Origin: Anaerolineae bacterium
GTDB taxonomy: Bacteria > Chloroflexota > Anaerolineae > B4-G1 > DUEL01
Assembly (NCBI GenBank): GCA_041082215.1
Contig: JBDOIF010000025.1
Location: forward strand, 1-33,119
DNA: 33,119 bases
Reading direction: 5' to 3'
Shown here: one piece after another, positions 1-30,997 of the stretch
How the letters are laid out: each line of letters begins with the position of its first letter
How positions within the stretch are numbered: the stretch's first letter is position 1
Position numbers and translations under genes: made by a program
Notes under the pieces: model-generated
The model's database searches: none
What the model was told of the DNA's origin: nothing
Seen by the model: only the letters and a program-made list of their open reading frames with translations

Positions 1-1040
1 ACCCGCGGCCGTCCCGTCCCCGCCACCCATCCCACAATCCCTACCTCCCCAACCTTCAGCCGGTGCCCACGCGCCAGCATCCGCTGACCACCCTCCGACG
101 ACGCCGCCCGCAGCACCGCGTACTCTTTCCCCTCATCCAGCAGAAACGCACCTGTATGGTAGAACCCAAACCGCTCCGAAATCAGCCGGACCACCCGGTC
201 CAGCAGTTTCCCCACATCCCGGATTGCCGCCGCCTCCCGCGCCACCTCCGCCGACGCCGCCAACTGAAGGGCACGCCGCTCCAGCGCCGTATTGGCCTCC
301 CTCAGTCGGGCGACCGCCTCTTCCAGCTCCCCTGTCCGCTCCGCCACCTTCCGCTCCAGCTCGACAGTCAGCTCCCGCAGGGGGTTCAGGAGCTGTCGGC
401 TGACGATGCCATACCCCAGGACAAGGACACTGACCGTGGTGGAGAAGGACATCACGGGGAAGGGGACGCGGAGCAGGCCGCCGATAACGAAGCCCATCAG
501 GAAGATGAACACGCTGGCCGCCATAAACGGCTCGCCGGTCCGGCGGCGTTCCCGCCAGAAGAGGATCAGCGCCCAGAAGGAGTAGAGGGCCGGCAGAACC
601 CCCGCCACGAATCCCCAGAAGGTGAGGTCGTGAGTGGTCACGCCGTTGGGTTCTATGCGGGGGCTGTAGATCAACTGATGGCGGAAGAGGAAAGGGGTGA
701 GCGCCAGGACCAGGAGGATGCCCATGCCTGCCGCGGTGTCCACCCCCCAGACAGGCCGCCCGACGTAGCGGACGGTGAACATCAGCAGGAGGGGGCCGGT
801 GAGCGCAAAGGCCAGGGTGGCCAGCTCCAGCAGGAGGGAAGGGTTGCCCACCGACGTCCACAGCGAGATGCGAAGCAGGAGGGCGAAGATCGCCCACGCC
901 GCCTCCGCCGAGACGAAGACGGCGAAACGGCGGTTGACCGAGTGGTAGACCCCGGCTGCCAGCACCATCATCGCCAGCGCCGTGGCGACCACCGTAGAGA
1001 CCCCATAAGCAGCTAAATCCAGCCAGAACACCCACGGCAT
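1..1040 (-). CDS. Membrane (7TM/HisKA_7TM-like) sensor with coiled coil and GAF domain; 3' end runs off the window; paralogue of 1044..2855
   Basis: Absent from the ORF track because it has no stop in the window. Translated by hand from ATG at 1040: MPWVFWLDLAAYGVSTVVATALAMMVL...RQLLNPLRELTVELERKVAERT...ERFGFYHTGAFLLDEGKEYAVLRAASSEGGQRMLARGHRLKVGEVGIVG. It aligns collinearly with the 603-aa neighbour, has a GAGGAG-type RBS upstream and starts 3 bp after that gene's stop. Confidence 0.9.
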   Translation of the reverse strand, partial: MPWVFWLDLAAYGVSTVVATALAMMVLAAGVYHSVNRRFAVFVSAEAAWAIFALLLRISLWTSVGNPSLLLELATLAFALTGPLLLMFTVRYVGRPVWGVDTAAGMGILLVLALTPFLFRHQLIYSPRIEPNGVTTHDLTFWGFVAGVLPALYSFWALILFWRERRRTGEPFMAASVFIFLMGFVIGGLLRVPFPVMSFSTTVSVLVLGYGIVSRQLLNPLRELTVELERKVAERTGELEEAVARLREANTALERRALQLAASAEVAREAAAIRDVGKLLDRVVRLISERFGFYHTGAFLLDEGKEYAVLRAASSEGGQRMLARGHRLKVGEVGIVGWVAGTGRPR

Positions 1041-1043
1041 CGC

Positions 1044-2855
1044 TTACTCCTCCTCACGTCCGGATGCCCCGTCCCCGCCTTCCGGCCCCGTCACCTCGAC
1101 CGCTGCCCAGCGGGCGCCCAGCGCCCGCCCCAGCTCCCGCACCGTCGTCCTGAGGACGGTATCGGGGTCCAGAGAGGCCCGCACCCGGCTGGCGATCTCC
1201 CCCACCGCCTGCTCGCGGGCGGCGCGCCGCTGGGCCTCTTCCCGGAGGCGGATGTTTTCCAGCGCCAGGGCCATTCGCTCCGCCACCCCCAGAGCCATCT
1301 CGACCTCCTCCGGCCGCCACTCCCCGGCCTCTGCCGGACGGTGGAACCCCAGCATGCCGATAGCTACACCCCGCAGCCGGACCGGTACGGCCAGGGCATA
1401 CCTCGCTTCCCCCCCTTCTCCCCACAGGGCGGTCGCCGCTCCCCCCCGGCTACGGGCTTCGGCGAAGAGGGCTTCCCAGGCCCCATCGGGGGCCGCCACG
1501 GGGCCGGCCTGGTACCGCTGCAGCTCCGGACGGGCCTCGACCAGCTCCCGCCAGGTCTTCTCCGCCATCACCTGATAGACGCGGCTGACCTCGTCCAGGC
1601 TGGACTGGACCTGGATAAAGAGCCGGGCATTCTCCAGACCCACCGCCAACTGGTCGGCCAGGGTCTGCAGCACCGCCACGTCCTCTTCGCTGAACGCTTC
1701 CGGCTCCTGCGACTGCACGTCCAGCACCCCGATCACCTCTCCCCGCACCTTCAGCGGCAACGCCATTTCGGAGCGGGTATCCGGCAGGTCCGGATTGGCG
1801 AAATGGACCGCATCCTCTCCGACATCGAGGGCAACGCGGGGCTCCCCCGTCCTGGCCACCCTTCCGACGATCCCCTCCTCTCCCACCCGCAGCCGGTGGC
1901 CGCGGGCCAGCAGCCGCTGCCCGCCTTCAGAGGAGGCGGCCCGGAGCACCGCGTACTCCCTCGCCTCGTCCAGCAGGAAGATGCCGACATGATAGAAGCC
2001 GAACCGCTCCGAGACCAGATGGACGGTGTCCTGGAGAAGCTGGGCCACGTCGCGGATGGCGGAGACGGAGCGGGCGACCTCAGCGGCGGTCTGAAGGTAC
2101 GTGACATGCCGTTGTAGCCTCCCCGCCGCCTCCTCCAGTTCCCGCGTCCGCTCTGCCACCTGTTCCTCCAGCCGCTCCGTCAATTCCCGCAGCGGATTGA
2201 AGAGCTGGCGGTTCACCACATCGTACCCCAGGAGGCCGATGACCAGGGTTATCGCCAGGCTGAGGGTGGGGAAGGGGAGCTGGACGAAGCTGAAGACCAC
2301 GCTGGAAGCCACCAGGAGGGTAAAGGCAAGCGGCAGGTAGAACCTTTCCACCTTCCTTCTCTCGGTCCAGAGAAGGAGCAGGACCAGCGCTGCGCTGACG
2401 AACAGCGGTACGGAGGTCAACCAGCCGAATCGAGTCCGATCCCAGATGACCGTGCCGCCGGGGCCGATCCGCACGTTGAACAGGACTTGGCCCTGGAAGA
2501 GGGGCACTCCGAAGGCCAGGACCAGTATCAGGCTGGTGACAGACACCCAGTAGGGCCAGTCCCGCTCCGGCCGGAGGTAGACGCCGGTGAAGAGGAGCAA
2601 CAGCGGCGCCAGGAGCATGAAGCCCATAGTGGAGAGCTCCATCCAGAACTGCTGGGTACCGGTGTTCAGCCAGAGGGCGATCCGGAGGATGACGGAGGAG
2701 CCCGCCCACAGCACCACACTGCCCATAACCAGGGCGAAGCTCAGGTTGACAACCCGGCGGATGCCCATCCCCAGGACGACCATCATCAGCGACACGGCGG
2801 CAATGGTCGTCAGGCCGTAGGCCCCGATGTCAATCCATAAAGTGGTGGTCGGCAT
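1044..2855 (-). CDS. 7TM membrane sensor + GAF + degenerate GAF + truncated C-terminal GAF-like module; no kinase or cyclase output domain
   Basis: About 7 hydrophobic helices in the first ~215 aa. GAF signature RSEMALPLKVRGEVIGVLDVQS...FSEEDVAVLQTLADQLAVGLENAR. GGAGG RBS upstream. Confidence 0.88.
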   Translation of the reverse strand: MPTTTLWIDIGAYGLTTIAAVSLMMVVLGMGIRRVVNLSFALVMGSVVLWAGSSVILRIALWLNTGTQQFWMELSTMGFMLLAPLLLLFTGVYLRPERDWPYWVSVTSLILVLAFGVPLFQGQVLFNVRIGPGGTVIWDRTRFGWLTSVPLFVSAALVLLLLWTERRKVERFYLPLAFTLLVASSVVFSFVQLPFPTLSLAITLVIGLLGYDVVNRQLFNPLRELTERLEEQVAERTRELEEAAGRLQRHVTYLQTAAEVARSVSAIRDVAQLLQDTVHLVSERFGFYHVGIFLLDEAREYAVLRAASSEGGQRLLARGHRLRVGEEGIVGRVARTGEPRVALDVGEDAVHFANPDLPDTRSEMALPLKVRGEVIGVLDVQSQEPEAFSEEDVAVLQTLADQLAVGLENARLFIQVQSSLDEVSRVYQVMAEKTWRELVEARPELQRYQAGPVAAPDGAWEALFAEARSRGGAATALWGEGGEARYALAVPVRLRGVAIGMLGFHRPAEAGEWRPEEVEMALGVAERMALALENIRLREEAQRRAAREQAVGEIASRVRASLDPDTVLRTTVRELGRALGARWAAVEVTGPEGGDGASGREEE

Positions 2856-2856
2856 C

Positions 2857-5199
2857 TCAACCTCCTCGTACCCGATCCCCGCCCGGCCCCAGCTCGACGT
2901 AGACGCCTGTCGCCCGCAACATGCGGGCCAGCTCTTCGGTCGAGCCGCGCAGCACCCCCTCCAGGTCCACTGCCCGCGCGATGCGGTCGCCGATGACCCG
3001 CACCGCGGCCTCCTGCTCGGCCCGCCGCCGCGCCAGCTCCAGCAGCCGCACCCGGTCCATAGCGACCGAAGCCTGATCGCTCAGCACTTCGTAGAGCCGG
3101 ACGGCGGACTCGGGGAAGCCGCCGGGCGTCACCCGATAGGCCGCGACAAAGCCCAGCAACCGGTCACCGATCCGGAGAGGGATGTTCGCAACCGCCTCAA
3201 CCCCTGCCCTTCGGAAGAAATCCCGCTCCTCTTCCGGGAGCGCGCCGGGTGCGGAGATGTCCGTCACCACCAGCATGTTCCGTATCCGTTCCATTCGCAT
3301 ATGGGCGGCGGAGACGGGCAGGCGGGTGCCCGGCCGGATAGGGGATTCCTGATCTCGTCGCCACGAGGCGACGAAGTGGAAAACCTCCGGTTCCCGGCTC
3401 CCGTACGGCTCGGTAAGGGCCACGATGCAGCCGTCCACGTCGGTCTCTTTCACCAGATCAACGATGACGTTGACCACCTCTTCCACCGCCATCGCCGTGG
3501 CCAGCCGACGGCTGGCCCGGTAGATGGGGCTGGTGGCCTCCAGCAGCAGCGCCTCGTCGGAGATACGCCAGGCGTTTTCCAGAGCTACGGCGATCTGGTC
3601 GGCCATGCTCTGCAAAGCCCGCACATCGTCTTCGTCGAAGGCGGCCTCCTCGGTGGATTGCACATCCAGCACCCCCAACAGCCGCGTACCGACCATCAGT
3701 GGGAGGGTCATTTCGGAGCGGGTGTAAGGGAGCAGGGGGTTGGCAAAGTGGACCGCGTCCGCTCCCACGTCCAGCGCGATGCGGGGCCGGCGGTGAAGGG
3801 CGGTCCAGCCAACCATACTGGTCTCTCCCACCGGCAGCCGGTGGCCCCGGGCCTTCATCATAGCCCCGGCCTCGCCCGTCGCTTCCCGCAATACGGCCCA
3901 CCGACCGGATTCGTCCATCAGGAAGATGCCGGCGTGATAGAAGCCGAACCGCTCGCGGATCAGGTCCACCGTCCGGCGCAGCAACTGGTCCACGTCGAAG
4001 ATGGAGGTGATCGCCCGACCGACCTCGGCGCTCGCCTCCAGTTGCATCGCCCGCCGCTGGAGGGCGTAGTTGGCTTCCTGGAGCGCGCGCGTCCGCTCCT
4101 GCACCCGCTCCTCCAGCTCGCTGTAGAGGGCCTGGAGGCTCGAGGCCATCCGGTTGAAAGCGACGGCCAGCTTGCCGAACTCGTCCGCCTGCTCCACCCG
4201 AACCCGCTCACCCAGGTGGCCAGCGGCCAGGCGGGAGGTGGCATGGGTGATCTGCTCCAGCGGCCAGGCGATGCTCCGCAGGGTGGCAACGGTTGTGATC
4301 ACCATCGTCGCTGTGATCAGCAGCCCCCAGACAACGGGAACCCTTCGGACCAGCTGACGGGCCTCGCTCAGCCGGGCAAGCTGATCCGCCTCCCGTTCCG
4401 CCGTCAGTTCCCTCACACGGGCCATGGAGGAACTCAGCCGTTGGTGATAAAAGGAGACCAGCCCCAACTGGGTATATCGCCGGACCACTCTCCAGTTTCC
4501 CGCCTCTGCGTACCGGAGCATCTGGCGCGTCAGGTTCTCCACGGGGCGCGTATAATCGTACAATCGGATGAGCGCCTGCCGAAGCGGGTCCCCCTGAGGG
4601 AGAGCCGATGCAGCAGAGATGAGCTCATCCGTCGCCTCCTGCAGCGCCTCCCAGGACCCCTCCACATCCTGCCGAAAGCGGGCCGCGTCCCGTTCCTGCC
4701 CCCTTTCGACCATAAGGGCGAGGAGGTTGATCGTCGCCCCTTCCACTTTCAGAGCAGCGTTTTCCTGGAGCTGGAGCTGCTGAAGTGCCACATTGGCTTC
4801 CTCCGCCTGTCGGAAAGAGCTGAAGATAAAGAGCGCGGAGGCGGCCAGCATGGTGAGAAGGATCGAGAGGGTCCCGATGAGCCGGTCGCGGACTGTTGTG
4901 ACCCGGGCGGCGATGATGGGCCGCGATACCTCCTCTTCTTTCTCCTCTTCCTCGGCCTCGCGGATGGGCTGCAGGATCACGACGCCACGGGGAGGAGCCT
5001 CCGGAACCTCCGGTGGGGCAACTGGCCCGGCCTCTACCTTCCGCACCGGAACCTCCTCGACTGTCGGCGGCGGGGCCGGTTGCGGACGGCCCTCCTCCGG
5101 GGTCGGCGGAGGAGGGGGTTCGGGCTTTCCCTCCGGTTCCGGCGGAGAGAAACCCGAGAACAGCTTTTCCAAAGAGTCCCTCAACTTATCATCGCTCAT
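2857..5199 (-). CDS. Membrane sensor: N-terminal helix + Pro/Glu-rich linker, TM-helical extracellular domain-TM, HAMP, two GAF domains, truncated GAF-like tail; no output domain
   Basis: HAMP motif (PLEQITHATSRLAAGHLGERV...DEFGKLAVAFNRMA) and GAF motifs. Start placed at ATG 5199 (MSDDKL) behind AGAGGA rather than at 5229. Confidence 0.87.
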   Translation of the reverse strand: MSDDKLRDSLEKLFSGFSPPEPEGKPEPPPPPTPEEGRPQPAPPPTVEEVPVRKVEAGPVAPPEVPEAPPRGVVILQPIREAEEEEKEEEVSRPIIAARVTTVRDRLIGTLSILLTMLAASALFIFSSFRQAEEANVALQQLQLQENAALKVEGATINLLALMVERGQERDAARFRQDVEGSWEALQEATDELISAASALPQGDPLRQALIRLYDYTRPVENLTRQMLRYAEAGNWRVVRRYTQLGLVSFYHQRLSSSMARVRELTAEREADQLARLSEARQLVRRVPVVWGLLITATMVITTVATLRSIAWPLEQITHATSRLAAGHLGERVRVEQADEFGKLAVAFNRMASSLQALYSELEERVQERTRALQEANYALQRRAMQLEASAEVGRAITSIFDVDQLLRRTVDLIRERFGFYHAGIFLMDESGRWAVLREATGEAGAMMKARGHRLPVGETSMVGWTALHRRPRIALDVGADAVHFANPLLPYTRSEMTLPLMVGTRLLGVLDVQSTEEAAFDEDDVRALQSMADQIAVALENAWRISDEALLLEATSPIYRASRRLATAMAVEEVVNVIVDLVKETDVDGCIVALTEPYGSREPEVFHFVASWRRDQESPIRPGTRLPVSAAHMRMERIRNMLVVTDISAPGALPEEERDFFRRAGVEAVANIPLRIGDRLLGFVAAYRVTPGGFPESAVRLYEVLSDQASVAMDRVRLLELARRRAEQEAAVRVIGDRIARAVDLEGVLRGSTEELARMLRATGVYVELGPGGDRVRGG

Positions 5200-6079
5200 G
5201 GCCCATCCTCTCTTTTCTTCCCCGCCCATCTGGTGGAGCTGCGGTCAGCGATGCCCCTGGCCGGTCGGCCAGGAGTGACTCCTCCCCGGAGAGGGGAGTG
5301 GGGAGGGAGCTCAGAGATGCGAGGAACGGACCCAGCTCCTGTGCCAGTGTCCGGTACTCCGCTGCTGCCCGCGTGTGGGGCGCATACTGAGTGACCGGCA
5401 ACCCGTAGGCCGGACTCTCCCGCAATTTGGTGTCGGTCTGGATCATAGTCTCCAGGAGGGCCTCCCGGAAGTGGCGCCGGAGGTATTCCAGCACCAGCCG
5501 GTGGACCTTGTTGCGGCCGTCGTACATCACGACGAGCAGCCGATAAGCCAGGCGGGGGTTGGTCTTGCGACGCACCAGCCGCACCATATCCAGCATCTGG
5601 CGGACCGAACGCACGGCGTAGAACTCGCACTGGGTGGGGATCAACAACAGATCGGCCGCTGTGAGGGCGTTGAGCGTCAGCGTGCCGAAGGAGGGGGGGC
5701 AATCCAGAAGGATCGCGTCGTAGAGCTGATCGCGCGCCCGATCGAGCGCCTCCTTCAGGCGGAACTCGTACCCCTGTCGCTGGTAGAGCACCTTATCCAG
5801 AACGACCAGCTCCCGATTGGACGGCACCAGGTCCAGCCCCTCCACCGGGGTTTCCCGGCTGGCGGCGACCAGGGAACTCTGCCCCAGCAGCACATCCCCA
5901 ACTGTACGGCGCAACGTTCCCATATCAATGCCCAGCGATGCAGTCAGGTGGGCCTGGGGGTCCATATCCACCAGCAACACCCACCGGCCCTGCTCGGCCA
6001 GGCTACCACCCAGCGAAAGGCAGGTCGTGGTCTTTGCCACTCCACCCTTACTGTTCGCGATGGCGATCACTGCGCTCAT
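5189..6079 (-). CDS. parA: ParA/Soj family ATPase (orphan; no parB in window)
   Basis: Deviant Walker A KGGVAKTTT, DMDPQ, DCPPS, IPTQCEFY, MYDGR and KLRESPAYGLP. Start ATG 6079 overlaps the kinase stop (ATGA). Confidence 0.93.
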   Translation of the reverse strand: MSAVIAIANSKGGVAKTTTCLSLGGSLAEQGRWVLLVDMDPQAHLTASLGIDMGTLRRTVGDVLLGQSSLVAASRETPVEGLDLVPSNRELVVLDKVLYQRQGYEFRLKEALDRARDQLYDAILLDCPPSFGTLTLNALTAADLLLIPTQCEFYAVRSVRQMLDMVRLVRRKTNPRLAYRLLVVMYDGRNKVHRLVLEYLRRHFREALLETMIQTDTKLRESPAYGLPVTQYAPHTRAAAEYRTLAQELGPFLASLSSLPTPLSGEESLLADRPGASLTAAPPDGRGRKERMGHER

Positions 6080-8448
6080 TCCGCCCCTCCCGTCCTTACC
6101 CCTCTCCGCCCGATGGGTTCCAGCGGCAGCGTAAACGTGAAGGTGGAGCCTTTCCCCACCTCGCTCTCCACCCAGATCTCCCCCCCATGCATCTCCACGA
6201 ACTCCTTGCTCAGGGCCAGCCCCAGGCCGGCCCCGTTGGGCCGACGACCATCCTCCAGCCTCCCCTGCTCGAACCGCTCGAAGATCCGCTCCATATCGGC
6301 CGGAGGGATGCCGATACCGGTGTCGCTCACACTGACGCAAACCCGGTCCCCCTCCGCCCAGGCCCGCACCTGAATCTCCCCCCGCTCGGTGAACTTGGCC
6401 GCGTTGGCCAGAAGGCGCAGCAGGACCTGGCGGACGCGGATCGGGTCCGCCCAGACAGCCGGGAGGCCCGGCGCGACCTCTTCTCGCAGCACCACGTCCT
6501 TATCCCGCACCAGTGCGCTGGCGGTCGCCATCACGCTGTGGATCAGGTCGGCCAGGTCCACCACCCGGAACTCCAGCTCCATCAGCCCCGCTTCGATCTG
6601 GGAGATGTCCAGCAGGTCGTTGATCAACCCCAGGAGGTGTCTGCCGTTGTGCCAGATGATCTCCAGGTCAACCCGCTGCTGCTCTGTGAGCGGGCCATCA
6701 ATTCCCTTCAACATCAACTGAGAGAAGCCGATGATATTGGTGAGGGGGGTCCGCAACTCATGGGACATATTGGCCAGGAACCGCCGCTTGGAGCGGTCCA
6801 GCTCCCGCAGCCGTTCCGCCGCTTCCCGCTCTACCGCATAGGCACGGGCGTTCTCCAGGGCGATGGTGATCTGATGGGCGACGTTCTGGAGGACGGAGAC
6901 GTCATCCTGATCGAAGCCGACCTGGTCGGTGCTCTGCACATCCAGCACACCCAGGGTGCGGTCCCCCAGCCGGAGCGGCAGCGCCACCTCCGAGCGGGTA
7001 TAGGAGACCGGCGGGCCTACCGTCAGCGGGAGGGACCGGCTTTCCACCACTGCCTCCCCTTCCCGGAAGGCCCGCCCCACCGGTCCGGGCGCGCCAAGGG
7101 GGATAGCGGAGCCGTGGAAGGGGTCCGGCTCCCCAACAGAAGCCCGCAGGAGGAGGTGCTCTTCTCCCTCATCGGCCGTATAGACCGCCACATAGGAATA
7201 CAGGAAACGGTCCCGCACCACCTGGACCACCTGCCTGAGCAGGCGGTCGGGGTCGAGGATGGAGGTGACCGCCTGCCCGACCTCCAGGCTGGCCTGCATC
7301 TGGATTGCGCGTCGCTGGATCTGGTAGTTGGCGAGTTGCAGAAGCTCCGTCCGCTCGGCGACCTTCGCCTCCAGGTCGTTGTAGAGCACCTCCAGATCGG
7401 CGGCCATCCGGTTAAAGACGGAGGCCAGGATGCCGATCTCGTCGCGGGAGGAGACCCTGACCCTTTGGGAGAGGTCCCCTCCGGCGATGCGGAGGGCCGA
7501 TTCGGTCAGATGGACCACAGGGCGGGTGATCTGGCGGGTGACGAAAGCAGCGATAACGGCGGTGGCGAGGGCGACGGCCAGGGTGGCGGCGATGACGGCG
7601 GTGGCGACAGCATCGTTGCCGGCGAAGGCTTCCTCCTGCGGCTGCTCGACGAAAAGGGCCACCCCCAGGTCCGGCAGCCAGCGGTAGACGCCGATGACCG
7701 GCTTCCCCTCGTAGTTCTCGTACAGCCCTTCCGACGAGCTGCCGGACAGGGCGGCCTGCACGGCATCACCACCCAGCCGCTGTCCCTGAGGAAGGGCCAT
7801 CCCTGCCCGATCCACCAGGTAAGCCTCTCCCTGCCTCCCCAGGCCGGCCGTCTCCTCCAGCAACCGGATCAACCCCTCCGGGGGGACCCGGACGGCCAGG
7901 TAGGGGCAGTCGGTGTCGTAGGGGAACGGTCCCACCACGACCAGCCCCCCCTGCCCTTCCAGGTCCAATGTCAGCTCCACCGCCGACGGCTCACCGGGCA
8001 GCGAGGGGTTACCGAAACCCATCCTCCTGCCCTCCCACGTCTCGTCGCCTGCCCATTCCACCCGCCCTTCGGAGTCCAGGAGCGCCACATCGGCCAATCC
8101 CCAATCGTGCGCTGCCGCCGCCAGGCGGGCGTGGACCTGGTGGGGATCGGGGTTTGCATCCCTCAAAGCCGCCTCTACCTGGGACATGAGGTCAGGCTCC
8201 CTCAAAACGGCGATCTGCTCTTCTACCCAGCGCCTGATCTGCGTTTCCTTCAATTCGGCAATTGAGCTCAACTTCTCGGTCACCTCTTGCTGGAGGTTGG
8301 CCCGGTTCCGGTTCGTCGCATACCAGCTGACGATGCTGAGCGGCAGGATGGCCAGGATCAGGAAGGCGGTCAGCAGCGTGCGGCCGAGGCCGCCCCGCAT
8401 CCCTACCTCTGGCACCTCCGGCCCTGCTCCCCGTTCCTCCAGCTCCAT
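6076..8448 (-). CDS. Sensor histidine kinase (TM, Cache-like extracellular domain, HAMP, GAF, HisKA, HATPase_c)
   Basis: H-box FLANMSHELRTPL, N-box LLANAAKFT, G1 DTGIGI, G2 GAGLGL. HAMP and GAF motifs lie upstream. Confidence 0.95.
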   Translation of the reverse strand: MELEERGAGPEVPEVGMRGGLGRTLLTAFLILAILPLSIVSWYATNRNRANLQQEVTEKLSSIAELKETQIRRWVEEQIAVLREPDLMSQVEAALRDANPDPHQVHARLAAAAHDWGLADVALLDSEGRVEWAGDETWEGRRMGFGNPSLPGEPSAVELTLDLEGQGGLVVVGPFPYDTDCPYLAVRVPPEGLIRLLEETAGLGRQGEAYLVDRAGMALPQGQRLGGDAVQAALSGSSSEGLYENYEGKPVIGVYRWLPDLGVALFVEQPQEEAFAGNDAVATAVIAATLAVALATAVIAAFVTRQITRPVVHLTESALRIAGGDLSQRVRVSSRDEIGILASVFNRMAADLEVLYNDLEAKVAERTELLQLANYQIQRRAIQMQASLEVGQAVTSILDPDRLLRQVVQVVRDRFLYSYVAVYTADEGEEHLLLRASVGEPDPFHGSAIPLGAPGPVGRAFREGEAVVESRSLPLTVGPPVSYTRSEVALPLRLGDRTLGVLDVQSTDQVGFDQDDVSVLQNVAHQITIALENARAYAVEREAAERLRELDRSKRRFLANMSHELRTPLTNIIGFSQLMLKGIDGPLTEQQRVDLEIIWHNGRHLLGLINDLLDISQIEAGLMELEFRVVDLADLIHSVMATASALVRDKDVVLREEVAPGLPAVWADPIRVRQVLLRLLANAAKFTERGEIQVRAWAEGDRVCVSVSDTGIGIPPADMERIFERFEQGRLEDGRRPNGAGLGLALSKEFVEMHGGEIWVESEVGKGSTFTFTLPLEPIGRRGVRTGGAE

Positions 8449-8576
8449 ACCGCCCTCACATCCCCCTGTGACACACCGGGCGGGTCTCCAAAATATGCCT
8501 ATGGCCTCAACATGAGCCCATCAGGCAAAGAGACCCGCCCTTCTGTTCTTGAGTCTGGCCGGTCGTCCAGCCTATC

Positions 8577-8987
8577 TCAGGAAAGCTCCCAGACCGACTC
8601 CCCTCGCAGGACGCGGCGGATCTGCTCAGGGAACCGGTCCGGGTCCAACGGCTTACCGATAAACCCATCAAAGCCGGCCTGACGAGCCCGCTCCATATTT
8701 TCCTGGCTGGCGTCGGCGGTGACGGCGACGATGAGGGTGTTCTGGAAACGGGGCTCAGACCGAAGCAAACCCAGCGCTTCATACCCATCCCGCTCCGGCA
8801 GCATAATGTCCATCAGGATCAGGTCAATGTGGGGAAGGGATTCGGCAAACTCCAGAACCTGCCAGCCGGAGGCCTTCCACTCACATCGCTGGACCCCAAG
8901 ATAGGCCAGGAGACGGGCGATAAGCAGGAAGTTGTTCAGGTTATCTTCGACCACGAGAACGGTGGCATCCTGTGGATTGATGGCCAT
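8577..8987 (-). CDS. Single-domain response regulator (CheY/DivK-like receiver)
   Basis: VLVVEDN, LILMDIMLP (phospho-Asp), VAVTA, FIGKP; no output domain. Confidence 0.93.
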   Translation of the reverse strand: MAINPQDATVLVVEDNLNNFLLIARLLAYLGVQRCEWKASGWQVLEFAESLPHIDLILMDIMLPERDGYEALGLLRSEPRFQNTLIVAVTADASQENMERARQAGFDGFIGKPLDPDRFPEQIRRVLRGESVWELS

Positions 8988-9020
8988 GCCTGCTCCGTCT
9001 CATCCGTCGGGTTGCTTCCT

Positions 9021-9401
9021 CTAGCCTTTCCGCGGGCGGAGGAAGCCAGCGATCTGTGCCGGCAGGGTATCCACATCGACCGGCTTCTGGATATACCCGT
9101 CACAGCCAGCAGCTAAGGTCCTCTCTCGATCCCCCTTCATCACATTCGCAGTCAGGGCAATGATCGGCACACCTCCCAACCCCGGCAGGCTGCGCAACCG
9201 TCCGACCATCTGATACCCATCCACCTCCGGGAGGTTGATATCCAGCAGGATCAGATCGGGCAGGGACTGGCGCGCCATTTCCAGGCCGGTCGGGCCATCG
9301 GTAGCCTCGACGACGGTGTACCCCTCCGCTTCCAGGATCCGCCGCACGAGAAGGCGGTTTTCAGGGTTGTCTTCGATGTAAAGAATGGTGGGTTGGTCCA
9401 T
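9021..9401 (-). CDS. Single-domain response regulator (DivK-like receiver)
   Basis: ILYIEDN, LILLDINLP, IALTANVMKGDRE, YIQKP. Confidence 0.95.
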   Translation of the reverse strand: MDQPTILYIEDNPENRLLVRRILEAEGYTVVEATDGPTGLEMARQSLPDLILLDINLPEVDGYQMVGRLRSLPGLGGVPIIALTANVMKGDRERTLAAGCDGYIQKPVDVDTLPAQIAGFLRPRKG

Positions 9402-9513: not shown

Positions 9514-10341
9514 TCACGGAGCAGGGCCCAAATAGCGCCTCACCCTCTCCTGTCCCTCTGGCCCCAGGACCCACTGGATGAAATCCCGCGCCTCCCCTTC
9601 CGGCTCGGAACGGGCTGCCAGGTAGAGGGCGTATCTCAGGGGATAGCCGTCGGCCCCGGGCGGGACCCCCTCGATGGAAAGCGCCCGGACGGTGTCCTTC
9701 GGCCAGCTCCAGGAGATGTAGCCGATGGCCCCAGGGGTCGTCGCCACCGCCTTCAGCACCCCCCCGGTATCGGGCGCTACCAGCGCCGTCAACGTCACGT
9801 CATACCCCCCCATCACCAGCGACTCAAAGACGGCCCGCACCCCCGCCCCCTCCTCCCGGCTGACCACCTGGATCGGGGTGCCATTGCTCCACTCCCCGAT
9901 GCGCCCCCGGAAGACCTCCCGCAGTTCGGCCAGGCTCAGCTCCTCCACGGGAACGGCAGGATGGACGACGACTGCCACATCGTCGGCGGCGAAGGGGACC
10001 GACCAGAGCTCCTCTCCTCCCTCCCCCAGCCAGGAAAGGACCGCCAGGTGGGCCGAACCGGCCTGCAGCCGCTCGCCGACGACGGCGTCGTTGAACACCT
10101 CCACCCGCACGGTCACCCACGGCCGCTCTTCGTGATAGGCCGCCGCCAGCTCTTCTATCAGCGGCCCACAGGTGTCCGTTGCCGCCAGCCGCAGGGTGAC
10201 CGGCTCGTGGGTGACGGTGAGGGGCTGAGAAGCACAGGCGGTCAGGAGGACGATGGTCAATGATACAATGAACAGTAAGCAATGAAAGGCCGGGACCGGG
10301 CCTTTGAAACTCTGTGTCCTCCACACCTCTGGGGTAAACAT
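9514..10341 (-). CDS. PstS-like phosphate-binding (PBP2) lipoprotein
   Basis: Lipobox LTAC; VAVVVHPAVPVEELSLAELREVFRGRIGEW, VVSREEGAG, PGAIGYIS, YPL. Start position uncertain. Confidence 0.8.
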   Translation of the reverse strand: MFTPEVWRTQSFKGPVPAFHCLLFIVSLTIVLLTACASQPLTVTHEPVTLRLAATDTCGPLIEELAAAYHEERPWVTVRVEVFNDAVVGERLQAGSAHLAVLSWLGEGGEELWSVPFAADDVAVVVHPAVPVEELSLAELREVFRGRIGEWSNGTPIQVVSREEGAGVRAVFESLVMGGYDVTLTALVAPDTGGVLKAVATTPGAIGYISWSWPKDTVRALSIEGVPPGADGYPLRYALYLAARSEPEGEARDFIQWVLGPEGQERVRRYLGPAP

Positions 10342-11270: not shown

Positions 11271-12302
11271 TCAGCAAATGCGCGGCAGCAGCTCTCCCAG
11301 CGGCATGTCCACCACGCGCCGGCCGCCGATGGGGGTGCGGGCCAGCACCATCCCGGGGTGCTCTCCGGTGACGACGCCGATGCGGACCGCCTCTCTCCCC
11401 AGTGGGTGGGCCTGCATCGCCGCCAGTGCTTTCTCCGCTTCCTCCGGCGGCACAATGGCGACCAGCTTCCCCTCGTTGGCGACGGTCAGCGGGTCGAACC
11501 CCAGCATCTCGCAGGCGGCCGCCACCGCCGGACGGACCGGCACTGCCCTCTCCTCGATCTCGATCCCCACCCCCGAGGACCCGGCCAGTTCGTTCAACGC
11601 AGCCGCCAGCCCGCCCCGGGTGGGATCGCGCAGGCAGTGGGTATGGGGGGCAGCCTCCAGCAGCACCTCCACCAGCCCGTTCAGCGGCGCGCTATCCGAA
11701 ACCAGCCGGGTCTCAAAAGCCAGCCCCTCCCGCTGGCTGAGGACGGCAATGCCGTGGTCGCCGACGGTGCCGCTGAGAAGCACCACGTCCCCTGGCCGCG
11801 CCTGATCCGGCCCCACCTCCACCCCGTCCATCACCACGCCGACGCCGGTGGTATTGATGTAGATGCCATCCCCATGCCCCCGCTCCACCACTTTCGTATC
11901 TCCGGCTATCACCTGCACCCCGGCCCGCCGGGCCGCCGCCGCCATCGAGCGCACCACCCGCTCCAGCACCTCCATCTCCAGTCCCTCCTCCAGGATAAAG
12001 GCAGCGGTGAGCCAGAGGGGCCGCGCTCCGGCCATCGCCACGTCGTTGACGGTGCCGTGGACGGCCAGCGAGCCAATGTCGCCGCCGGGGAAGAAAAGGG
12101 GGCGAACGGTGAAGGAATCGGTGGAGATGGCGAGTCTCAGCCCGGTCGCTGGTTGCTGGTTGCTGGTTGCTGGTTGAATGATGGTAGCGTCGGCCATCTG
12201 GCGCAGGAACTCGTTGTCCAGCGGGGGGGCGAAGAGTTCCCGGATCAGGTCGTTCATCATCCTGCCGCCAGCGCCGTGGGCCAGGCGAATTACGTTCTCC
12301 AT
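11271..12302 (-). CDS. hypE: Hydrogenase maturation carbamoyl dehydratase HypE
   Basis: LAHGAGG, STDSFTVRPLFFPGGDIG, GTVNDVAM, DPTRGG, NEGK, C-terminal PRIC. Confidence 0.97.
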   Translation of the reverse strand: MENVIRLAHGAGGRMMNDLIRELFAPPLDNEFLRQMADATIIQPATSNQQPATGLRLAISTDSFTVRPLFFPGGDIGSLAVHGTVNDVAMAGARPLWLTAAFILEEGLEMEVLERVVRSMAAAARRAGVQVIAGDTKVVERGHGDGIYINTTGVGVVMDGVEVGPDQARPGDVVLLSGTVGDHGIAVLSQREGLAFETRLVSDSAPLNGLVEVLLEAAPHTHCLRDPTRGGLAAALNELAGSSGVGIEIEERAVPVRPAVAAACEMLGFDPLTVANEGKLVAIVPPEEAEKALAAMQAHPLGREAVRIGVVTGEHPGMVLARTPIGGRRVVDMPLGELLPRIC

Positions 12303-12331
12303 AACTACTCCCTCTTGTAACTACCTGCTGC

Positions 12332-12420
12332 CATCACGAATGACACGAACGCGCGAATTCACACGAATAAAAAACACTCTACAATTTGTGGGATTCGGCC
12401 CATTCGTGCCATTTGTGATG
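12332..12420. repeat. Palindromic array of ~9-bp (C)ACGAAT-type repeats
   Basis: The left arm CATCACGAATGACACGAACGCGCGAATTCACACGAAT is an imperfect inverse of the right arm ATTTGTGGGATTCGGCCCATTCGTGCCATTTGTGATG. Confidence 0.8.
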
Positions 12421-12500
12421 AAGTCGGCGTTTCGGGTTGGTCCAGAGTGGGCAGGTAAGTAGATACTCCGTCTTACAGAATATGGATCGCTTATTGCGTG

Positions 12501-13613
12501 TCACGTGTTACGTGTTGTGTACTGGTAGTACGCCGCGCACGCCCCCTCGGCGCTCACCATACAGGGGCCGACGGGGTTCTGAGGGGTACAGGCGCGGGCA
12601 AAGAGGGGGCATTCGGGGGGGCGAAGTACCCCCCGCAGGACCTCTCCACATCGGCAGCCCGGCGGCTCGCGGGCAGGAGCGACCTCCACAGGAAAGGCGC
12701 GGGCGGCATCGAAACGGGCATACGCCTCTTGGATCCCCAGACCGCTGGCCGGGATGGTCCCGAAGCCCCGCCACTCAGCGTCAACGACCTCGAAGACCTG
12801 CGCCATCACCCCCTGAGCGGCGGGGTTCCCCTCAGGGCGGACGCTGCGGGCATAGGTGTTGGAGATGCCCGGCCGCCCTTCCTCGACCATCTCCACCAGC
12901 GCCAGCACCGCCCGCAGGATGTCCAGCGGTTCGAAGCCAGCGATGGAGATAGGGATGGCGTACTCTTCCGGCAGGAAGCGCCACGCCTCCAGGCCGATAA
13001 CGGTGGTGACGTGGCCCGGGCCGATGATGCCGTCCAGCGCCACTTCTCCGGCATCTAGGATAGCACGGGTAGCAGGCGGAGTCAGTTTGTGGGTGCTGAA
13101 GACGTAGAAGTTCTCCAAACCCTCCGCCTCCGCCGCCGTCACCGCCGAGGCCACCATCGGCGCGGTGGTCTCAAACCCCACCCCCAGGAAGATCACCGGC
13201 CGCTCCGGGTTCTGTCGGGCGATCTCCAGCGCATCCAGGGGCGAGTAGACCACCCGTACATCCGCCCCTTCGGCCCTGGCCTGGGCCAGATTTGCAGGGG
13301 CGCGATGGGCGGCGTCCCTGCTGACCGGCACGCGGATCATATCCCCGAACGTGGTCAGGATGACGCCCGGCACCTGCGCCAGCGCGATAGCCCGCTCCAG
13401 ATCCGCCGCAGAGGTGACGCAGACCGGGCAGCCCGGCCCGGAACGGAGCTCCACTGTAGACGGCAGGAGGTCAGGGATACCGTAGCGGAGGATGGCATGG
13501 GTGTGCCCACCGCAGAACTCCATCAGCCGCACAGGGCGAGTGGAGCGGGCGCGGATGGCGTCGGCCAGTGCGCGGGCCATAGCGGGATCTCGAAATGAAG
13601 CAAAGAGATTCAC
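12501..13613 (-). CDS. hypD: Hydrogenase maturation protein HypD
   Basis: MEFCGGHTH, GPGCPVC, GFETT, GPGHV, CRCGEVLRG...ECPLF...CTP...GPCMVSAEGACAA. GTG start. Confidence 0.97.
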   Translation of the reverse strand: MNLFASFRDPAMARALADAIRARSTRPVRLMEFCGGHTHAILRYGIPDLLPSTVELRSGPGCPVCVTSAADLERAIALAQVPGVILTTFGDMIRVPVSRDAAHRAPANLAQARAEGADVRVVYSPLDALEIARQNPERPVIFLGVGFETTAPMVASAVTAAEAEGLENFYVFSTHKLTPPATRAILDAGEVALDGIIGPGHVTTVIGLEAWRFLPEEYAIPISIAGFEPLDILRAVLALVEMVEEGRPGISNTYARSVRPEGNPAAQGVMAQVFEVVDAEWRGFGTIPASGLGIQEAYARFDAARAFPVEVAPAREPPGCRCGEVLRGVLRPPECPLFARACTPQNPVGPCMVSAEGACAAYYQYTTRNT

Positions 13614-13675
13614 GGGTCAATCTGTGCGCTCATGTATCTGTGGTTCTCCGTCCGCTAAAGGCGCGTGACTTTTCA

Positions 13676-13805
13676 ATTTAACAGCTGGCTGCTCACCCGC
13701 CGCGCGGCTCATGCTCAGGGCCTCCCGCCTAAAACCCCAATGGTTAGCTCAACCACCCCCACAAACCGCCGCGATAGCGCGGTCGGGTGAAGCCGCTTGT
13801 TAGGC
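13676..13805 (-). mobile_element. Integron attC recombination site (130 bp)
   Basis: Minus strand: R'' GCCTAAC (contains the higA TAA), 5-bp spacer, L'' GCTTCACC, CGACCGCGC ... GCGCGG, CG, L' GGTGAGC, spacer, R' GTTAAAT. Two unpaired extra bases fall at the usual extrahelical positions. Confidence 0.88.
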
Positions 13806-14114
13806 CCGCTCTACCTCCGCTGCCCAAACACGCACCTCTCGCACCAACCTCTCCCCTAGCTCCTCCTTCTCCCGCTCTAAATCGTACCGCACCTGTAAGT
13901 TCATCCAAAACCGCTCCGATACCCCAAAATACCGCGCCAGCCGCAGCGCCGTGTCCGCAGTGATCGAACGCTTCCCCTGAACAATCTCGTTGATCCGTCG
14001 CGGCGACACTCCTATGTCCTTCGCCAGCCGGTACTGACTGATCCCCATCGGCTTTAGAAACTCCTCTAATAACACCTCTCCAGGATGAATCGGCGGATAC
14101 TCCCTCTCGCTCAT
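13800..14114 (-). CDS. higA: HigA family antitoxin (HTH-XRE)
   Basis: PPIHPGEVLLEEFLKPMGISQYRLAKDIGV...RRINEIVQGKRSITADTALRLARYFG...FWMNLQ. Start ATG 14114. Confidence 0.95.
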   Translation of the reverse strand: MSEREYPPIHPGEVLLEEFLKPMGISQYRLAKDIGVSPRRINEIVQGKRSITADTALRLARYFGVSERFWMNLQVRYDLEREKEELGERLVREVRVWAAEVERA

Positions 14115-14116
14115 TC

Positions 14117-14404
14117 CTACCCCCTGTGGTAACCCACTATCTCCACCTCGTAGGCATCCCCCTCTGCCCACTCAAAACACACCCGCCAGCGCTCACTGAT
14201 CCGTATACTATACTGGCCCGCCCGATCTCCCGATAACTTCTCCAGCCGATTGCCCGGTGGAACCATCAGATCATCCAGCCGCTCCGCTGCATCCAGCATC
14301 GCAAGCTTCCGTTGAGCTACCCGCTGCAGCTCAGGAGGAAGACGACGCGAAAACTGACGCAGGAATACCTTCTCCGTCTCTTTGTCCCGGAAGCTCTTGA
14401 TCAT
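14117..14404 (-). CDS. higB: HigB/RelE family toxin (plasmid maintenance killer type)
   Basis: MIKSFRDKETEKVF...PPGNRLEKLSGDRAGQYSIRI...WRVCF...EIVGYH. Toxin gene precedes antitoxin. Confidence 0.95.
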   Translation of the reverse strand: MIKSFRDKETEKVFLRQFSRRLPPELQRVAQRKLAMLDAAERLDDLMVPPGNRLEKLSGDRAGQYSIRISERWRVCFEWAEGDAYEVEIVGYHRG

Positions 14405-14412
14405 ATATACCC

Positions 14413-14441
14413 ATAATAACGCGATGCGATAATATTGTCAA
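14413..14441 (-). promoter_or_regulatory. Sigma70 promoter of higBA with overlapping imperfect palindrome (probable HigA operator)
   Basis: TTGACA-17 bp-TATTAT, ending 8 nt before the higB ATG. Palindrome ATAATAACGC-GAT-GCGATAATAT (8/10 match). Confidence 0.85.
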
Positions 14442-14694
14442 GCGTTATTGCCAACCCCTCACCGCTGCTCCTACAAGCGGGCCTAAAACAATCAACAACG
14501 AAAAGAACACCGGTACCCTTCCCCGACCGCACGCTGGCGCACACCCCGCTTCCAATCCTCCCGGAGCGCCATTCGAAGCCCCAGGTCAGGTAGTTGTCGG
14601 CAAGCCGGGGGCGGAGAGGGATGGAAAGGGGGTAAATCCTTGCTATACTGACACAAGACAAATAGACGCAGGGGGCCCGAAAATGGGGAAGGGC

Positions 14695-14880
14695 ATGACA
14701 GAAAATCATAGATTGCGCCGCCAAAACGGGATCGTGGCCGGTGTCTGTGGAGGGCTGGGGGCCTTCTTTGGCCTTAGCCCATGGTGGTTCCGCCTCCTTT
14801 TCCTGATCCTGCTACTGCCAGGCGGCCTGCCCGGCCTTCTGCCCTACCTGGTCCTCTGGATCGTCATCCCTCGAAAATAA
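14695..14880 (+). CDS. PspC domain-containing small membrane protein
   Basis: RLRRQNGIVAGVCGGLGAFFGLSPWWFRLLF...YLVLWIVIP. Extended -10 TGcTATACT at ~14641-14649. Start is 14683 or 14695. Confidence 0.88.
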   Translation: MTENHRLRRQNGIVAGVCGGLGAFFGLSPWWFRLLFLILLLPGGLPGLLPYLVLWIVIPRK

Positions 14881-17301
14881 TGAGGAGACCCCCGCAATCA
14901 CCGCCTGCCCCAGGGAGATGCCCGCATCGTTGGGAGGCACCAGCCGGTGAGTGCAGACTGTGAAGCCGGACGCCTCCAGGAGTGGCACGACCCTTCCCAG
15001 CAGAGTCACGTTCTGGAAGACCCCGCCGGAAAGGGCCACCACCTCCAGCCCTGTCTCCTCCCGCAGCCGTAGACACACATCCCGAACCATCCGCGCCAGG
15101 CCGTTGTGGAAGCGGGCAGCGATCACACCCGCCGGAACTCCCGCACGGACATCGGCGACAACAGCGCGGATGACAGGGGCGGGGTTGATGCCGGTTGCGG
15201 TTTGCTCGTTGCCCGTTGCTGGTCGCTGATGGCTGGTTGGGTGGGTTGTCAGCTCGAAGGCGTAGGCACCAGCCTCGTCTTCCTGAACCAGCATCTCCAA
15301 TTCGATCGCCGCCTGAGCCTCGTAGTTGATCTCCTGCCGCACACCAGCCAGGGCGGCCACGGCATCGAAAAGACGGCCCACGCTGGAGGTGGGCGTAGTG
15401 TTCAGCCCCTGCTCCAATTGCCGGATCAGCACCGCCCGTTCAACAGGAGAGGCAGCCGCCACCGGGGGCAGGTCCTCTTCCCACGGCACCCCCGCCGCCC
15501 ACAGGTAGGCCAGCGCGGTGCGGTAAGGGCGACGGATGGCTGCGTCGCCACCGGGCAGCGGGATGTACTTGAGGTGGGCCGACCGCCAGAAGGAGCGGTA
15601 GTCGGCGACCAGGAACTCCCCACCCCAGATCGCCCCGTCGGCCCCATAGCCTGTGCCGTCGAAGGCAACCCCGATGACTGGCTGCTCCCCGCTCAGCCCG
15701 TTCTCCGCCATACAGGAAGCGATGTGAGCGTGATGGTGCTGGACAGGATGCAGGACGCAAGAAGCAGGAGGCAGGATGCAGAGGACCTCCTGCCCTCTGC
15801 TTTTTGCCTCTCGCACCCTTTGCACGTAACGAGTCGTGAGATAGCCAGGGTGCAGATCACAGGCGATGACCTCCGGCTGCACACGGAACGTGCGGGCCAG
15901 TTGCTCCACCATCTGCTCGAAGAAGCGGAGGGTCTCGTAGTTTTCCATATCGCCAATGTGCTGGCTCAGAAAAGCATAGCGCCCCCGGGTCAGGCAGAAG
16001 GTGTTCTTCAGTTCTGCCCCCACCGCCAACACCTGCCGCACAGGGAAGGGGAGATGGACGGGATACGGGGCGTAGCCACGGGAACGGCGGATGGGCAGCT
16101 CCACGCCGCGAAAGACACGGGTCACGCTGTCGTCACATCGGGCATGGATATCCCGGTCGTGCAACAGGAACGCATCGGCCAGACCCGCCAGCCGTTCCAG
16201 CGCCTCGTCGTTGTCGGTGACGATGGGCTCCTCGGAGTAGTTGCCGGAGGTCATCACCAGGGCGAGGGGCCAGGGGCTGGTGGCTCGTTGCTCGTTGCTG
16301 GCAGGCTCGAGGAGCAGGTAGTGGAGGGGGGTGTAGGGGAGCATCACGCCCAGATAGCGGTTGCCCGGAGCGACAAGGGGAGAGATGGGACAGTCGGCTC
16401 GCCTGCGCAGGAGCACGATGGGCCGCTGGCGGGAGATGAGCAGCTTCTCTTCCGCCTCGCCGACCTCACAATACTGCCGCACCGCTTCGAGATCAAACGA
16501 CATAATGGCAAAGGGCTTGTCCACCCGCCCCTTCCGCTCCCGCAGCCGGGCCACCGCCTCGCTGCTGGTGGCGTCGCAGGCCAGATGAAAGCCGCCCAGC
16601 CCCTTGATCGCCACAACGGCTCCCTCCAGGAGGAGCTGCCGGACCGCCTGGATGGCCGCATCTGGAGAGGCCCCGGACCGGAGTCCTGAAATCCGGAACC
16701 CGGAACCGGGGACTTCCAACCAGACCCTGGGTCCGCATACAGGACAGGCGTTAGGCTGGGCGTGGAAGCGACGGTTGGTGGGATCGTCGTATTCGGCCTG
16801 GCAGTCAGGACACATCCGGAAGGGAGCCATTGTCGTTCTGGGCCGGTCGTAGGGAATGTCTCTGATAATGGTGAAGCGGGGACCACAGTTGGTGCAGTTG
16901 ATAAACGGGTAACGGTAACGGCGGTCGTGGGGGTCGAAAAGCTCCCGGAGGCAATCGTCGCAGATAGCAATGTCGGGCGAGATGGGCTGGAACTCGCCGG
17001 GACGGGCTTCTGAATGACGAATGACAAAGCCCGGTCCCCCGTCGTGGGACAGGGACGGGAGGTCGGTAACGGTGATAGATTCGATGCGGGCCAGCGGTGG
17101 GGCATCGGCCCGGAGCCGCTCGACGAACTCATCCAGAACAGAGATCGGACCCGCGGCCTCGATCTCAACTCCAGAGGAGCTGTTCAACACCCATCCGGAG
17201 ACTCCCAGCCGGGTAGCCAGGTTATAGACAAAGGGGCGAAACCCCACCCCCTGGACGACACCTGTGATATGGATACGGCGAACCAGCAGCTCTTTTTTCA
17301 T
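14812..17301 (-). CDS. hypF: Carbamoyltransferase HypF
   Basis: Acylphosphatase GVVQGVGFRPF, zinc fingers CDDC/CTNC/CPDC/CPVC, KGLGGFHL, QHHHAH, DGTGYG, PPNDAGISLGQ. Confidence 0.97.
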   Translation of the reverse strand: MKKELLVRRIHITGVVQGVGFRPFVYNLATRLGVSGWVLNSSSGVEIEAAGPISVLDEFVERLRADAPPLARIESITVTDLPSLSHDGGPGFVIRHSEARPGEFQPISPDIAICDDCLRELFDPHDRRYRYPFINCTNCGPRFTIIRDIPYDRPRTTMAPFRMCPDCQAEYDDPTNRRFHAQPNACPVCGPRVWLEVPGSGFRISGLRSGASPDAAIQAVRQLLLEGAVVAIKGLGGFHLACDATSSEAVARLRERKGRVDKPFAIMSFDLEAVRQYCEVGEAEEKLLISRQRPIVLLRRRADCPISPLVAPGNRYLGVMLPYTPLHYLLLEPASNEQRATSPWPLALVMTSGNYSEEPIVTDNDEALERLAGLADAFLLHDRDIHARCDDSVTRVFRGVELPIRRSRGYAPYPVHLPFPVRQVLAVGAELKNTFCLTRGRYAFLSQHIGDMENYETLRFFEQMVEQLARTFRVQPEVIACDLHPGYLTTRYVQRVREAKSRGQEVLCILPPASCVLHPVQHHHAHIASCMAENGLSGEQPVIGVAFDGTGYGADGAIWGGEFLVADYRSFWRSAHLKYIPLPGGDAAIRRPYRTALAYLWAAGVPWEEDLPPVAAASPVERAVLIRQLEQGLNTTPTSSVGRLFDAVAALAGVRQEINYEAQAAIELEMLVQEDEAGAYAFELTTHPTSHQRPATGNEQTATGINPAPVIRAVVADVRAGVPAGVIAARFHNGLARMVRDVCLRLREETGLEVVALSGGVFQNVTLLGRVVPLLEASGFTVCTHRLVPPNDAGISLGQAVIAGVSSLFSRDDDPEDQVGQKAGQAAWQ

Positions 17302-27584: not shown

Positions 27585-27718
27585 ACCAACCTCCTTATAA
27601 TTCCTGCCACGGAGTACAGAAAACACGGATTCCTACACATCAGCCCGGAGCCAGAAGCCCCGGGCTGATGGCTCAAACCCCTTTACAAAGGTCGAACCAT
27701 CCTCCGGACTCCCATCCT

Positions 27719-30700: not shown

Positions 30701-30790
30701 GCCGGTCTCTCCAGCCGCGAGGGCGAGGGGAACCGATACGATCAGCCAGCCGACAACGCCAACCATCAGGAGAGATCGTAACTTTTTCAT
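27719..30790 (-). CDS. Surface adhesin: thioester (TQXA/TED) domain, two SdrD-B-like domains, three DUF11-like Ig domains, TSP3-like repeats, C-terminal YRIFLPVIL motif
   Basis: Signal peptide; SFCTDL...[12 protein letters not shown]...PVGTVFV...[31 protein letters not shown] and [24 protein letters not shown]; three (T/H)N(T/I)G(N/D) Ig repeats. Start is 30790 or 30811, because ATG 30835 overlaps a TATAAT box. Confidence 0.88.
27790..28380 (-). repeat. Coding tandem repeats (84-bp/28-aa DxDGDG units), central copies nearly identical
   Basis: [18 protein letters not shown](M/T)IPDAVEGA(D/G) repeated. Confidence 0.88.
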
Positions 30791-30997
30791 CCTACCCGAA
30801 CTCCTTCCCATCAATCCGCCTTTCTTCAAGCCCATTATAACTCACCTTACCACTTTCTGCAAGATTAAAAGCAAAATTAATTCTAACCGTATTCTAACTT
30901 TGCTTACCTTCGGGGCAGCCCTGTGACGCCCGTCATTGGCGGGAGGAGGTGTGGAAGGTATACTTAAGGTTAGTTCAGAGAAGAACAGGTTTGGGAG

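Follow-up and report, generated by a model that had tools for sequence, protein, structure and literature searches.

Many sensors act together on one kinase in two described bacterial assemblies. The stressosome is a soluble complex with a STAS core, whose Ser/Thr kinase is released by partner switching. Chemosensory arrays, positioned by ParC-ParP in Vibrio and by PpfA-TlpT in Rhodobacter sphaeroides, combine many output-less receptors, variable in their inputs and alike in a conserved cytoplasmic module, with one shared kinase and free receivers. Here we analyse a contig of 33,119 nucleotides from an Anaerolineae bacterium (JBDOIF010000025.1; the window), whose first 9,401 positions hold genes for two receivers (Rec1, Rec2), a histidine kinase (HK1), an orphan ParA and three receptors (R1–R3). 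They begin an operon that very probably encodes a modular system of many sensors and one kinase. We give even odds that it is a third many-receptor assembly, with sensors and kinase joined by split GAF domains, placed by ParA and a peptide tag, and related to chemotaxis in its positioning.

Gene content and conservation

The seven genes were originally described as co-oriented, the last five being tightly coupled, and that layout is confirmed. All lie on the minus strand; HK1 and ParA overlap by 4 bp, ParA and R1 by 11 bp, and the next gaps are 1 and 3 bp, with looser spacing upstream (33 bp between the receivers, 128 bp from rec2 to the kinase). Pfam finds two single receiver domains, as predicted, then a weak dCache-HAMP-GAF-HisKA-HATPase series, ParA (AAA_31), HAMP-GAF-GAF and GAF-GAF. 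The three membrane proteins do differ in input, R2 and R3 having seven predicted transmembrane (TM) helices each and R1 two, as has HK1. Their first GAF (GAF1) is closely related, at 54–60% identity among receptors and 37–43% between kinase and receptors. The original prediction missed the second GAF of each complete receptor (half a GAF in R2, a whole one in R1), a C-terminal GAF fragment whose complementary half is carried by a second kinase, and a conserved peptide tag on the gene after ParA.

The window is an entire contig (C94) of a 3.5 Mb genome (G000, 96% complete) and holds only the start of the operon, which continues on three more contigs (C17, C108, C16). These encode further receptors, a family-5 solute-binding protein, a second kinase (HK2), a fusion of a PALP enzyme to a receiver, and a receiver-kinase. 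In four relatives a single protein matches both the end of C17 and the beginning of C108. The first 170 bases of C16 and of C17 are 94.7% alike. We take C94-C17-C108-C16 as the likely order, presuming two joins at the repeat. R3 probably continues on C17 as socket-GAF-plug (terms defined below); all five relatives that match its 7TM region end in a plug. The genome encodes six plug-ended proteins in all.

An array lacking MCP, CheA and CheW was predicted from the window, and this extends to the whole genome and to a conserved many-receptor system. The MCP (methyl-accepting chemotaxis protein) signalling domain (PF00015) has no match in the genome or in the receptors, CheW and the CheW-like domain of CheA (PF01584) have none in the genome, and both kinases are class I HisKA-HATPase proteins, not CheA. 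A search of the full-text literature for such a system or for a split GAF returned none, in agreement with the claim that no such system is described; most subscription papers and supplements lie outside its scope.

The gene-neighbourhood comparison originally proposed found the array at 27 of 32 fetched loci of related ParAs (10 of 12 and 17 of 20). ParA orthologues in relatives are 54–70% identical, versus about 43% for the chromosomal ParA. Nineteen arrays traced over several stretches hold 5–16 plug-ended proteins each, a lower bound where the fetched stretch fell short; 15 of them include the PALP-receiver gene and 10 include HK1. Orthologous receptors likewise lack outputs, as the prediction had it, and a layout that recurs at 27 of 32 loci with 5–16 such receptors argues that they are not broken or truncated kinases. 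Inputs of 60 sampled receptors include dCache and other Cache types, MASE11, HisKA_7TM, PAS and LacI-type binding folds, with 17 lacking a Pfam match. Among paralogues the inputs are 17–20% identical, GAF1 47–90% and the plug 33–51%. GAF1 is unusually conserved in all array members, and its matches include the GAFs of fRMsr and PtsP.

Plugs occur in 78 of 301 sampled genomes of the class and ParA (E ≤ 1e-65) in 43, of which 42 have both. In a phylum sample, 31 of 301 genomes have a plug; seven of these do not belong to the class. The 80 named ParA loci show arrays solely in records named Chloroflexota. These genomes are related by kinship, so the counts are distributions, not tests. The 150 best representatives proved to be long proteins with several GAFs and contributed little.

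A GAF domain in two halves

In the commonest receptor end, GAF1 is followed by a partial GAF and then by a stub at the C-terminus; this module measures 330–361 amino acids (aa) in 69 of 72 cases. We call the stub, a GAF α1-α2-β1 fragment, the plug and the remaining GAF half the socket. A profile comparison placed the stub at GAF1 positions 4–45 (probability 54%), the partial GAF at positions 102–160; on a general GAF profile the plug covers positions 1–42 and the socket about 100–166, without overlap. Neither provides a complete α1-α2-β1…β5-α5 fold in one stretch. The hydrophobic pattern of the plug follows that of a GAF (Spearman 0.86), its buried β1 positions are hydrophobic at 0.88–1.0, and 299 of 317 plug proteins end 48–80 residues past the plug start.

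Models agree with this division. In a monomer model of R2 (predicted local distance difference test, pLDDT, 90.6) the plug strand is unpaired, held off at the end of a continuous 46-residue helix. The HK2 socket modelled alone (pLDDT 89.9) has five strands and aligns to solved GAFs after β1: residues 31–123 on 67–167 of 3mmh, where β1 is 51–57 (Z 7.1–7.3, root-mean-square deviation 2.1–2.2 Å, 85 residues), and 23–124 on 46–164 of 3trc. These alignments are known as residue ranges only and do not show whether the slot is open. Fold searches gave GAF-type matches only and none to the whole GAF1-socket-plug rod; the Atlas gave GAF clusters only, mostly from Chloroflexota.

The two halves are distributed unevenly between sensors and kinases. 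HK2, a hybrid kinase with several GAFs, HisKA, HATPase and two receivers, lies on C16, where positions 138-509 encode its socket. Its socket is detected by profile in 28 of 33 complete copies and the other five begin with a C-terminal half-GAF, so that all 33 carry β2 or β4 onward (two copies truncated at the 5' end are excluded). In Anaerolineales-type loci HK2 follows ParA and has no TM helix before its first domain; 24 of the 25 soluble kinases shown open with the tag, followed by a low-complexity linker and then a bare β4-β5-α5 half-GAF (one more, late-starting, was dropped). Complete plug proteins (n=265, with 51 cut ones excluded) have an adjacent socket in 205 cases, a distant one in 23 and none in 37. 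Three loci (G085, G118, G299) hold one socket-less membrane plug protein beside one soluble socket kinase. Out of sample, all ten further genomes chosen by plug matches, nine lacking a ParA match at E ≤ 1e-65 and one from the phylum sample, have a socket-bearing kinase in the locus. Of the 34 GAF open reading frames (ORFs) that this genome has beyond its four array contigs, none was labelled by the plug or the socket profile; two of them gave partial GAF matches under an earlier profile set.

The constant kinase of the arrays is not the one in the window. HK1 has a socket in none of 15 complete copies and is absent from six arrays, where the receiver pair directly precedes ParA or a receptor. 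HK1 is therefore probably not the docking partner, and the prediction that it takes the receptors' signals is not supported in that form; HK2 is the constant kinase. There is other variation around HK1: the G085 and G299 loci (L257, L259) have a HAMP-GAF-HisKA protein at its position without an ATPase domain, and the G004, G012 and G027 loci have an unrelated gene of 210–340 codons between HK1 and ParA.

A ParA with a cognate tag

The array ParA is a deviant Walker A ATPase encoded outside a parAB locus. The possibility that it is the chromosomal ParA, encoded beside parB on contig C160, was rejected on 43% identity and separate placement in a quick tree. Its basic residues match in the alignment those of the Soj-like ParA of the same genome, at positions that may bind DNA. 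The gene after ParA opens with an amphipathic motif of 14 residues that contains three Leu, one acidic residue and Phe-Ser. Scored leave-one-out at 33 loci, the earliest collected (those added later were inspected by eye), this tag reaches at least 12 bits in 30 of 33 genes after ParA and at least 8 bits in none of 135 other array proteins. Carriers include a receptor, a kinase, an LCP protein, MinC, a PilM-like protein and CheW proteins. Ten loci were found without a ParA gene; the first plug protein lacks the tag in nine of them, by eye, and has a look-alike in G203. Five ParA paralogues (L043, L045, L069, L070, L074) precede PilM-like, two LCP-family, MinC and WD40-like proteins, of which the first four cargo proteins are tagged.

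Support is good for both the operon and the ParA tag. In the quick tree, which does not include Vibrio ParC or Rhodobacter PpfA, array ParAs fall within a Chloroflexota-only group of 63 rows, 50 of them beside arrays (Shimodaira–Hasegawa-like approximate likelihood ratio test, SH-aLRT, 96). The nearest rows outside, L097 and L126, are joined to it with SH-aLRT 90, although this tree contains a row on a long branch; there ParA is followed by a CheW with the same motif by eye, one CheW adjoining an MCP and the other near flagellar motor genes. This arrangement is that of ParC and ParP (PMC5706961), and N-terminal partner peptides are given as the general rule for ParA/MinD ATPases (PMC10241942). 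We infer from sequence that ParA binds the tag. The predicted role for ParA gains a tie to the array through its cognate tag and a sister relationship to ParA-CheW pairs, and loses generality: ParA is optional, with 36 of 78 plug-bearing genomes lacking a match at E ≤ 1e-65.

Receivers and candidate output

The chemotaxis analogy had implied CheY-like receivers; both are closer to DivK. Rec1 has DivK as its best PDB match (E 4e-25) and orthologues in array loci at 52–79% identity; Rec2 matches the Sln1 receiver first and DivK second among solved structures, with orthologues at 59–87%. A CheY-type output to a motor was rejected in this genome, in which no CheW or MCP was found and Rec1 is DivK-like. 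The PALP enzyme, encoded after HK2 (G000 C16, L231:5113-6801), is threonine-synthase-like, with an N-terminal Cys-rich stretch and a fused receiver. The HisKA domains of HK1 and HK2 are 74% identical, and the last receiver of HK2 is closest to the PALP-fusion receiver (46%). These likenesses suggest shared targets and a pyridoxal phosphate (PLP) enzyme under phosphorylation control as one output. Some arrays also contain, just before their soluble members, PF04672 S-adenosylmethionine methyltransferase genes and small helical proteins (L052:9618-10412; G004, G016, G027, G105); a methylation-based adaptation step is conceivable.

Weighing a proposed split-GAF mechanism

We favour a plug-and-socket mechanism, at a probability of roughly 0.55. 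Each receptor joins a variable input (dCache, 4HB, MASE11, 7TM, PAS or a periplasmic-binding fold) to HAMP or coiled coil, GAF1 and a C-terminal plug; HK2 and most receptors carry a socket, a GAF lacking α2-β1. A plug would insert into a socket on another chain and rebuild one GAF in trans. Receptors could dock on HK2 directly or through one another, sending a helical signal to HisKA; the DivK-like receivers and the fusion of PLP enzyme and receiver would then receive phosphate from HK2 and the accessory HK1. ParA would bind one member by its tag (here R1, in other lineages HK2 itself) and position the complex.

Several observations weigh against this mechanism. Plug and socket show no coevolution within a chain (top 15 pairs, mean z 0.08, with contacts learned from 1076 intact GAFs), versus z 1.9–2.5 for intact GAFs at equal depth, a weak 0.69 within the socket and about −0.3 for shuffled pairs. 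This argues against self-pairing and says nothing on cross-pairing; it fits promiscuous cross-pairing and equally no pairing. A Tyr in the first socket strand couples to the last strand (z 4.2; plain direct coupling analysis, 293 sequences, noisy), and together with the confident fold of the lone model this indicates that the socket may close the gap by itself, needing no partner. One pocket-side β1 position is polar in plugs (hydrophobic at 0.16 versus 0.74). Most receptors (205 of 265) hold both halves, so the model needs receptor-receptor chaining. Array proteins were the source of the profiles, and in any GAF conservation is highest in the C-terminal half. A complex prediction for HK2 socket and R1 plug (score 0.30 against a mark of 0.32, controls unfolded) counts neither way.

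The missing coevolution would also suit receptors that form in-register heterodimers or lateral clusters through coiled coil and GAF1 and so control the kinases, the stub being a helical dimer cap; these are the GAF-GAF contacts of the original prediction. GAF1 is the best-conserved domain among paralogues, ahead of the inputs, and recurs in both kinases and the receptors; the HAMP-GAF1-socket body of the receptors is shared by many HK2 proteins, and ethylene receptors form GAF-mediated higher-order clusters (PMC3485614). We nevertheless judge such clusters unlikely, since they leave unexplained the bare half-GAF start of soluble HK2, the constant β1 in the stub, and the minimal loci, where the sensor has only a plug and the kinase only a socket. 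It is improbable that receptors never touch the kinases and act instead through another partner, a small molecule bound to GAF1 or a ParA-positioned scaffold. Receptor-kinase binding is itself deduced, GAF1 is complete and matches ligand-binding GAFs, and methyltransferase and small helical genes do sit inside some arrays; yet every locus traced to its end has a socket-bearing kinase, and no other conserved partner gene was seen there.

Two further explanations deny the receptors a role of their own. They might be a reservoir of sensor cassettes that GAF1-repeat recombination swaps onto the kinase, the free receptors doing little: this genome has two GAF1-coding stretches that are 98.6% identical, and the HK2 N-terminus differs between genomes. 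That we consider a marginal prospect, because the ORFs are intact and tightly coupled, a silent cassette has no need of a conserved plug, most paralogous GAF1 DNA is only about 68–78% identical, and HK2 has no sensor in several lineages. Decaying tandem kinase duplicates that have lost their outputs, to which the receptors' resemblance to an HK2 cut at a GAF boundary would point, are largely refuted by the shared end point and module length given above and by the spread of the plug through 78 genomes of the class. Contigs from other sequencing runs cover positions 259-7297 with substitutions and zero indels, which tells against decay and also rules out frameshifted kinases: the receptor ends are not frameshift artefacts.

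If the split-GAF mechanism is right, many-receptor signal integration evolved a further time in bacteria, out of parts of class I kinases and among organisms whose cell biology is little studied. A natural split GAF as the link from sensor to kinase would amount to a new principle of joining proteins and a ready tool for modular sensor kinases, and a cell could build interchangeable sensor kinases or receptor chains ending in one kinase. The 14-residue tag would give one ParA clade a natural, portable address.

Features of the window

Table 1. Array genes, domains and repeat in the window
Feature	Position	Strand	Basis or remark
Rec1, single-domain receiver, 126 aa, DivK-like	9021..9401	-	PF00072; best PDB match DivK
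Rec2, single-domain receiver, 136 aa	8577..8987	-	PF00072; top matches Sln1 receiver, DivK
HK1, TM-dCache-TM-HAMP-GAF1-HisKA-HATPase, without socket half-GAF	6076..8448	-	Pfam, profiles
Orphan ParA, Chloroflexota-only clade	5189..6079	-	Pfam, quick tree
R1, tag-Pro-rich linker-TM-helical sensor-TM-HAMP-GAF1-GAF-plug; plug but no socket	2857..5199	-	
ParA-cognate tag, R1 residues 4-17	5149..5190	-	
R1 plug, C-terminal GAF α1-α2-β1 fragment	2878..3033	-	
R2, 7TM-coiled coil-GAF1-socket-plug, most frequent receptor module	1044..2855	-	
R2 GAF1, best-conserved array domain	1620..2099	-	
R2 socket, GAF without α2 and β1	1236..1619	-	homologous HK2 socket modelled
R2 plug, GAF α1-α2-β1 fragment	1074..1235	-	
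R3, 7TM-coiled coil-GAF1, truncated by contig end	1..1040	-	
GAF1-coding stretch, two genome copies, assembly break site	1..288	.	98.6% identical to end of C108; about double depth

Homologues carry names as Anaerolineae GAF proteins. More than half of the sampled words are present in six DNA runs from two hot-spring studies, one possibly the source run. An RNA run (X7) gave low-depth, near-identical contigs on several genes, which do not demonstrate transcription, and a promoter and terminator scan gave nothing useful. Upstream of the receivers lies a PstS-like binding protein gene (9514-10341), with similar-sized genes there in G001 and G010. Farther along are genes that we take to resemble the hydrogenase maturation genes hypE, hypD and hypF (11271-17301), with a small, presumably helix-turn-helix antitoxin-like gene among them (13800-14171). 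Near their C-termini, two large secreted-looking proteins (24843-30835) carry long repeats rich in Asp-Gly; their short hydrophobic tail motifs are alike.

Comparison with known systems

The array resembles chemosensory arrays in its receptors, shared kinase and free receivers, and also in pairing an orphan ParA with a partner that has an N-terminal interaction peptide (PMC5706961, PMC9178275, PMC10241942). It differs in its DivK-like receivers, its class I HisKA kinases and its linking module, a GAF fragment. The receptors may or may not form an ordered lattice like that of chemoreceptors. Co-assembling paralogous sensors that control one kinase are shared with the stressosome (RsbR paralogues, RsbS and the kinase RsbT); here the receptors are membrane proteins, the joining parts GAF halves and the kinases His kinases, and STAS has no match among the window proteins or 60 receptor input regions.

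Ethylene receptor clusters (ETR1 family) are alike in combining TM-GAF receptors into higher-order heteromers partly via GAF (PMC3485614); they keep kinase-like domains and whole GAFs, with neither ParA nor a split GAF. The same sensor-HAMP-GAF stalk is found in the ordinary hybrid histidine kinases with several GAFs that Anaerolineae have, and HK1 is one of them; by profile, plug and socket are absent from all 34 GAF ORFs beyond the array contigs. Rec1 and Rec2 are like Caulobacter DivK by similarity, which alone gives no cell-cycle role. The logic is like that of a chemosensory array or a stressosome, while membership in both fails.

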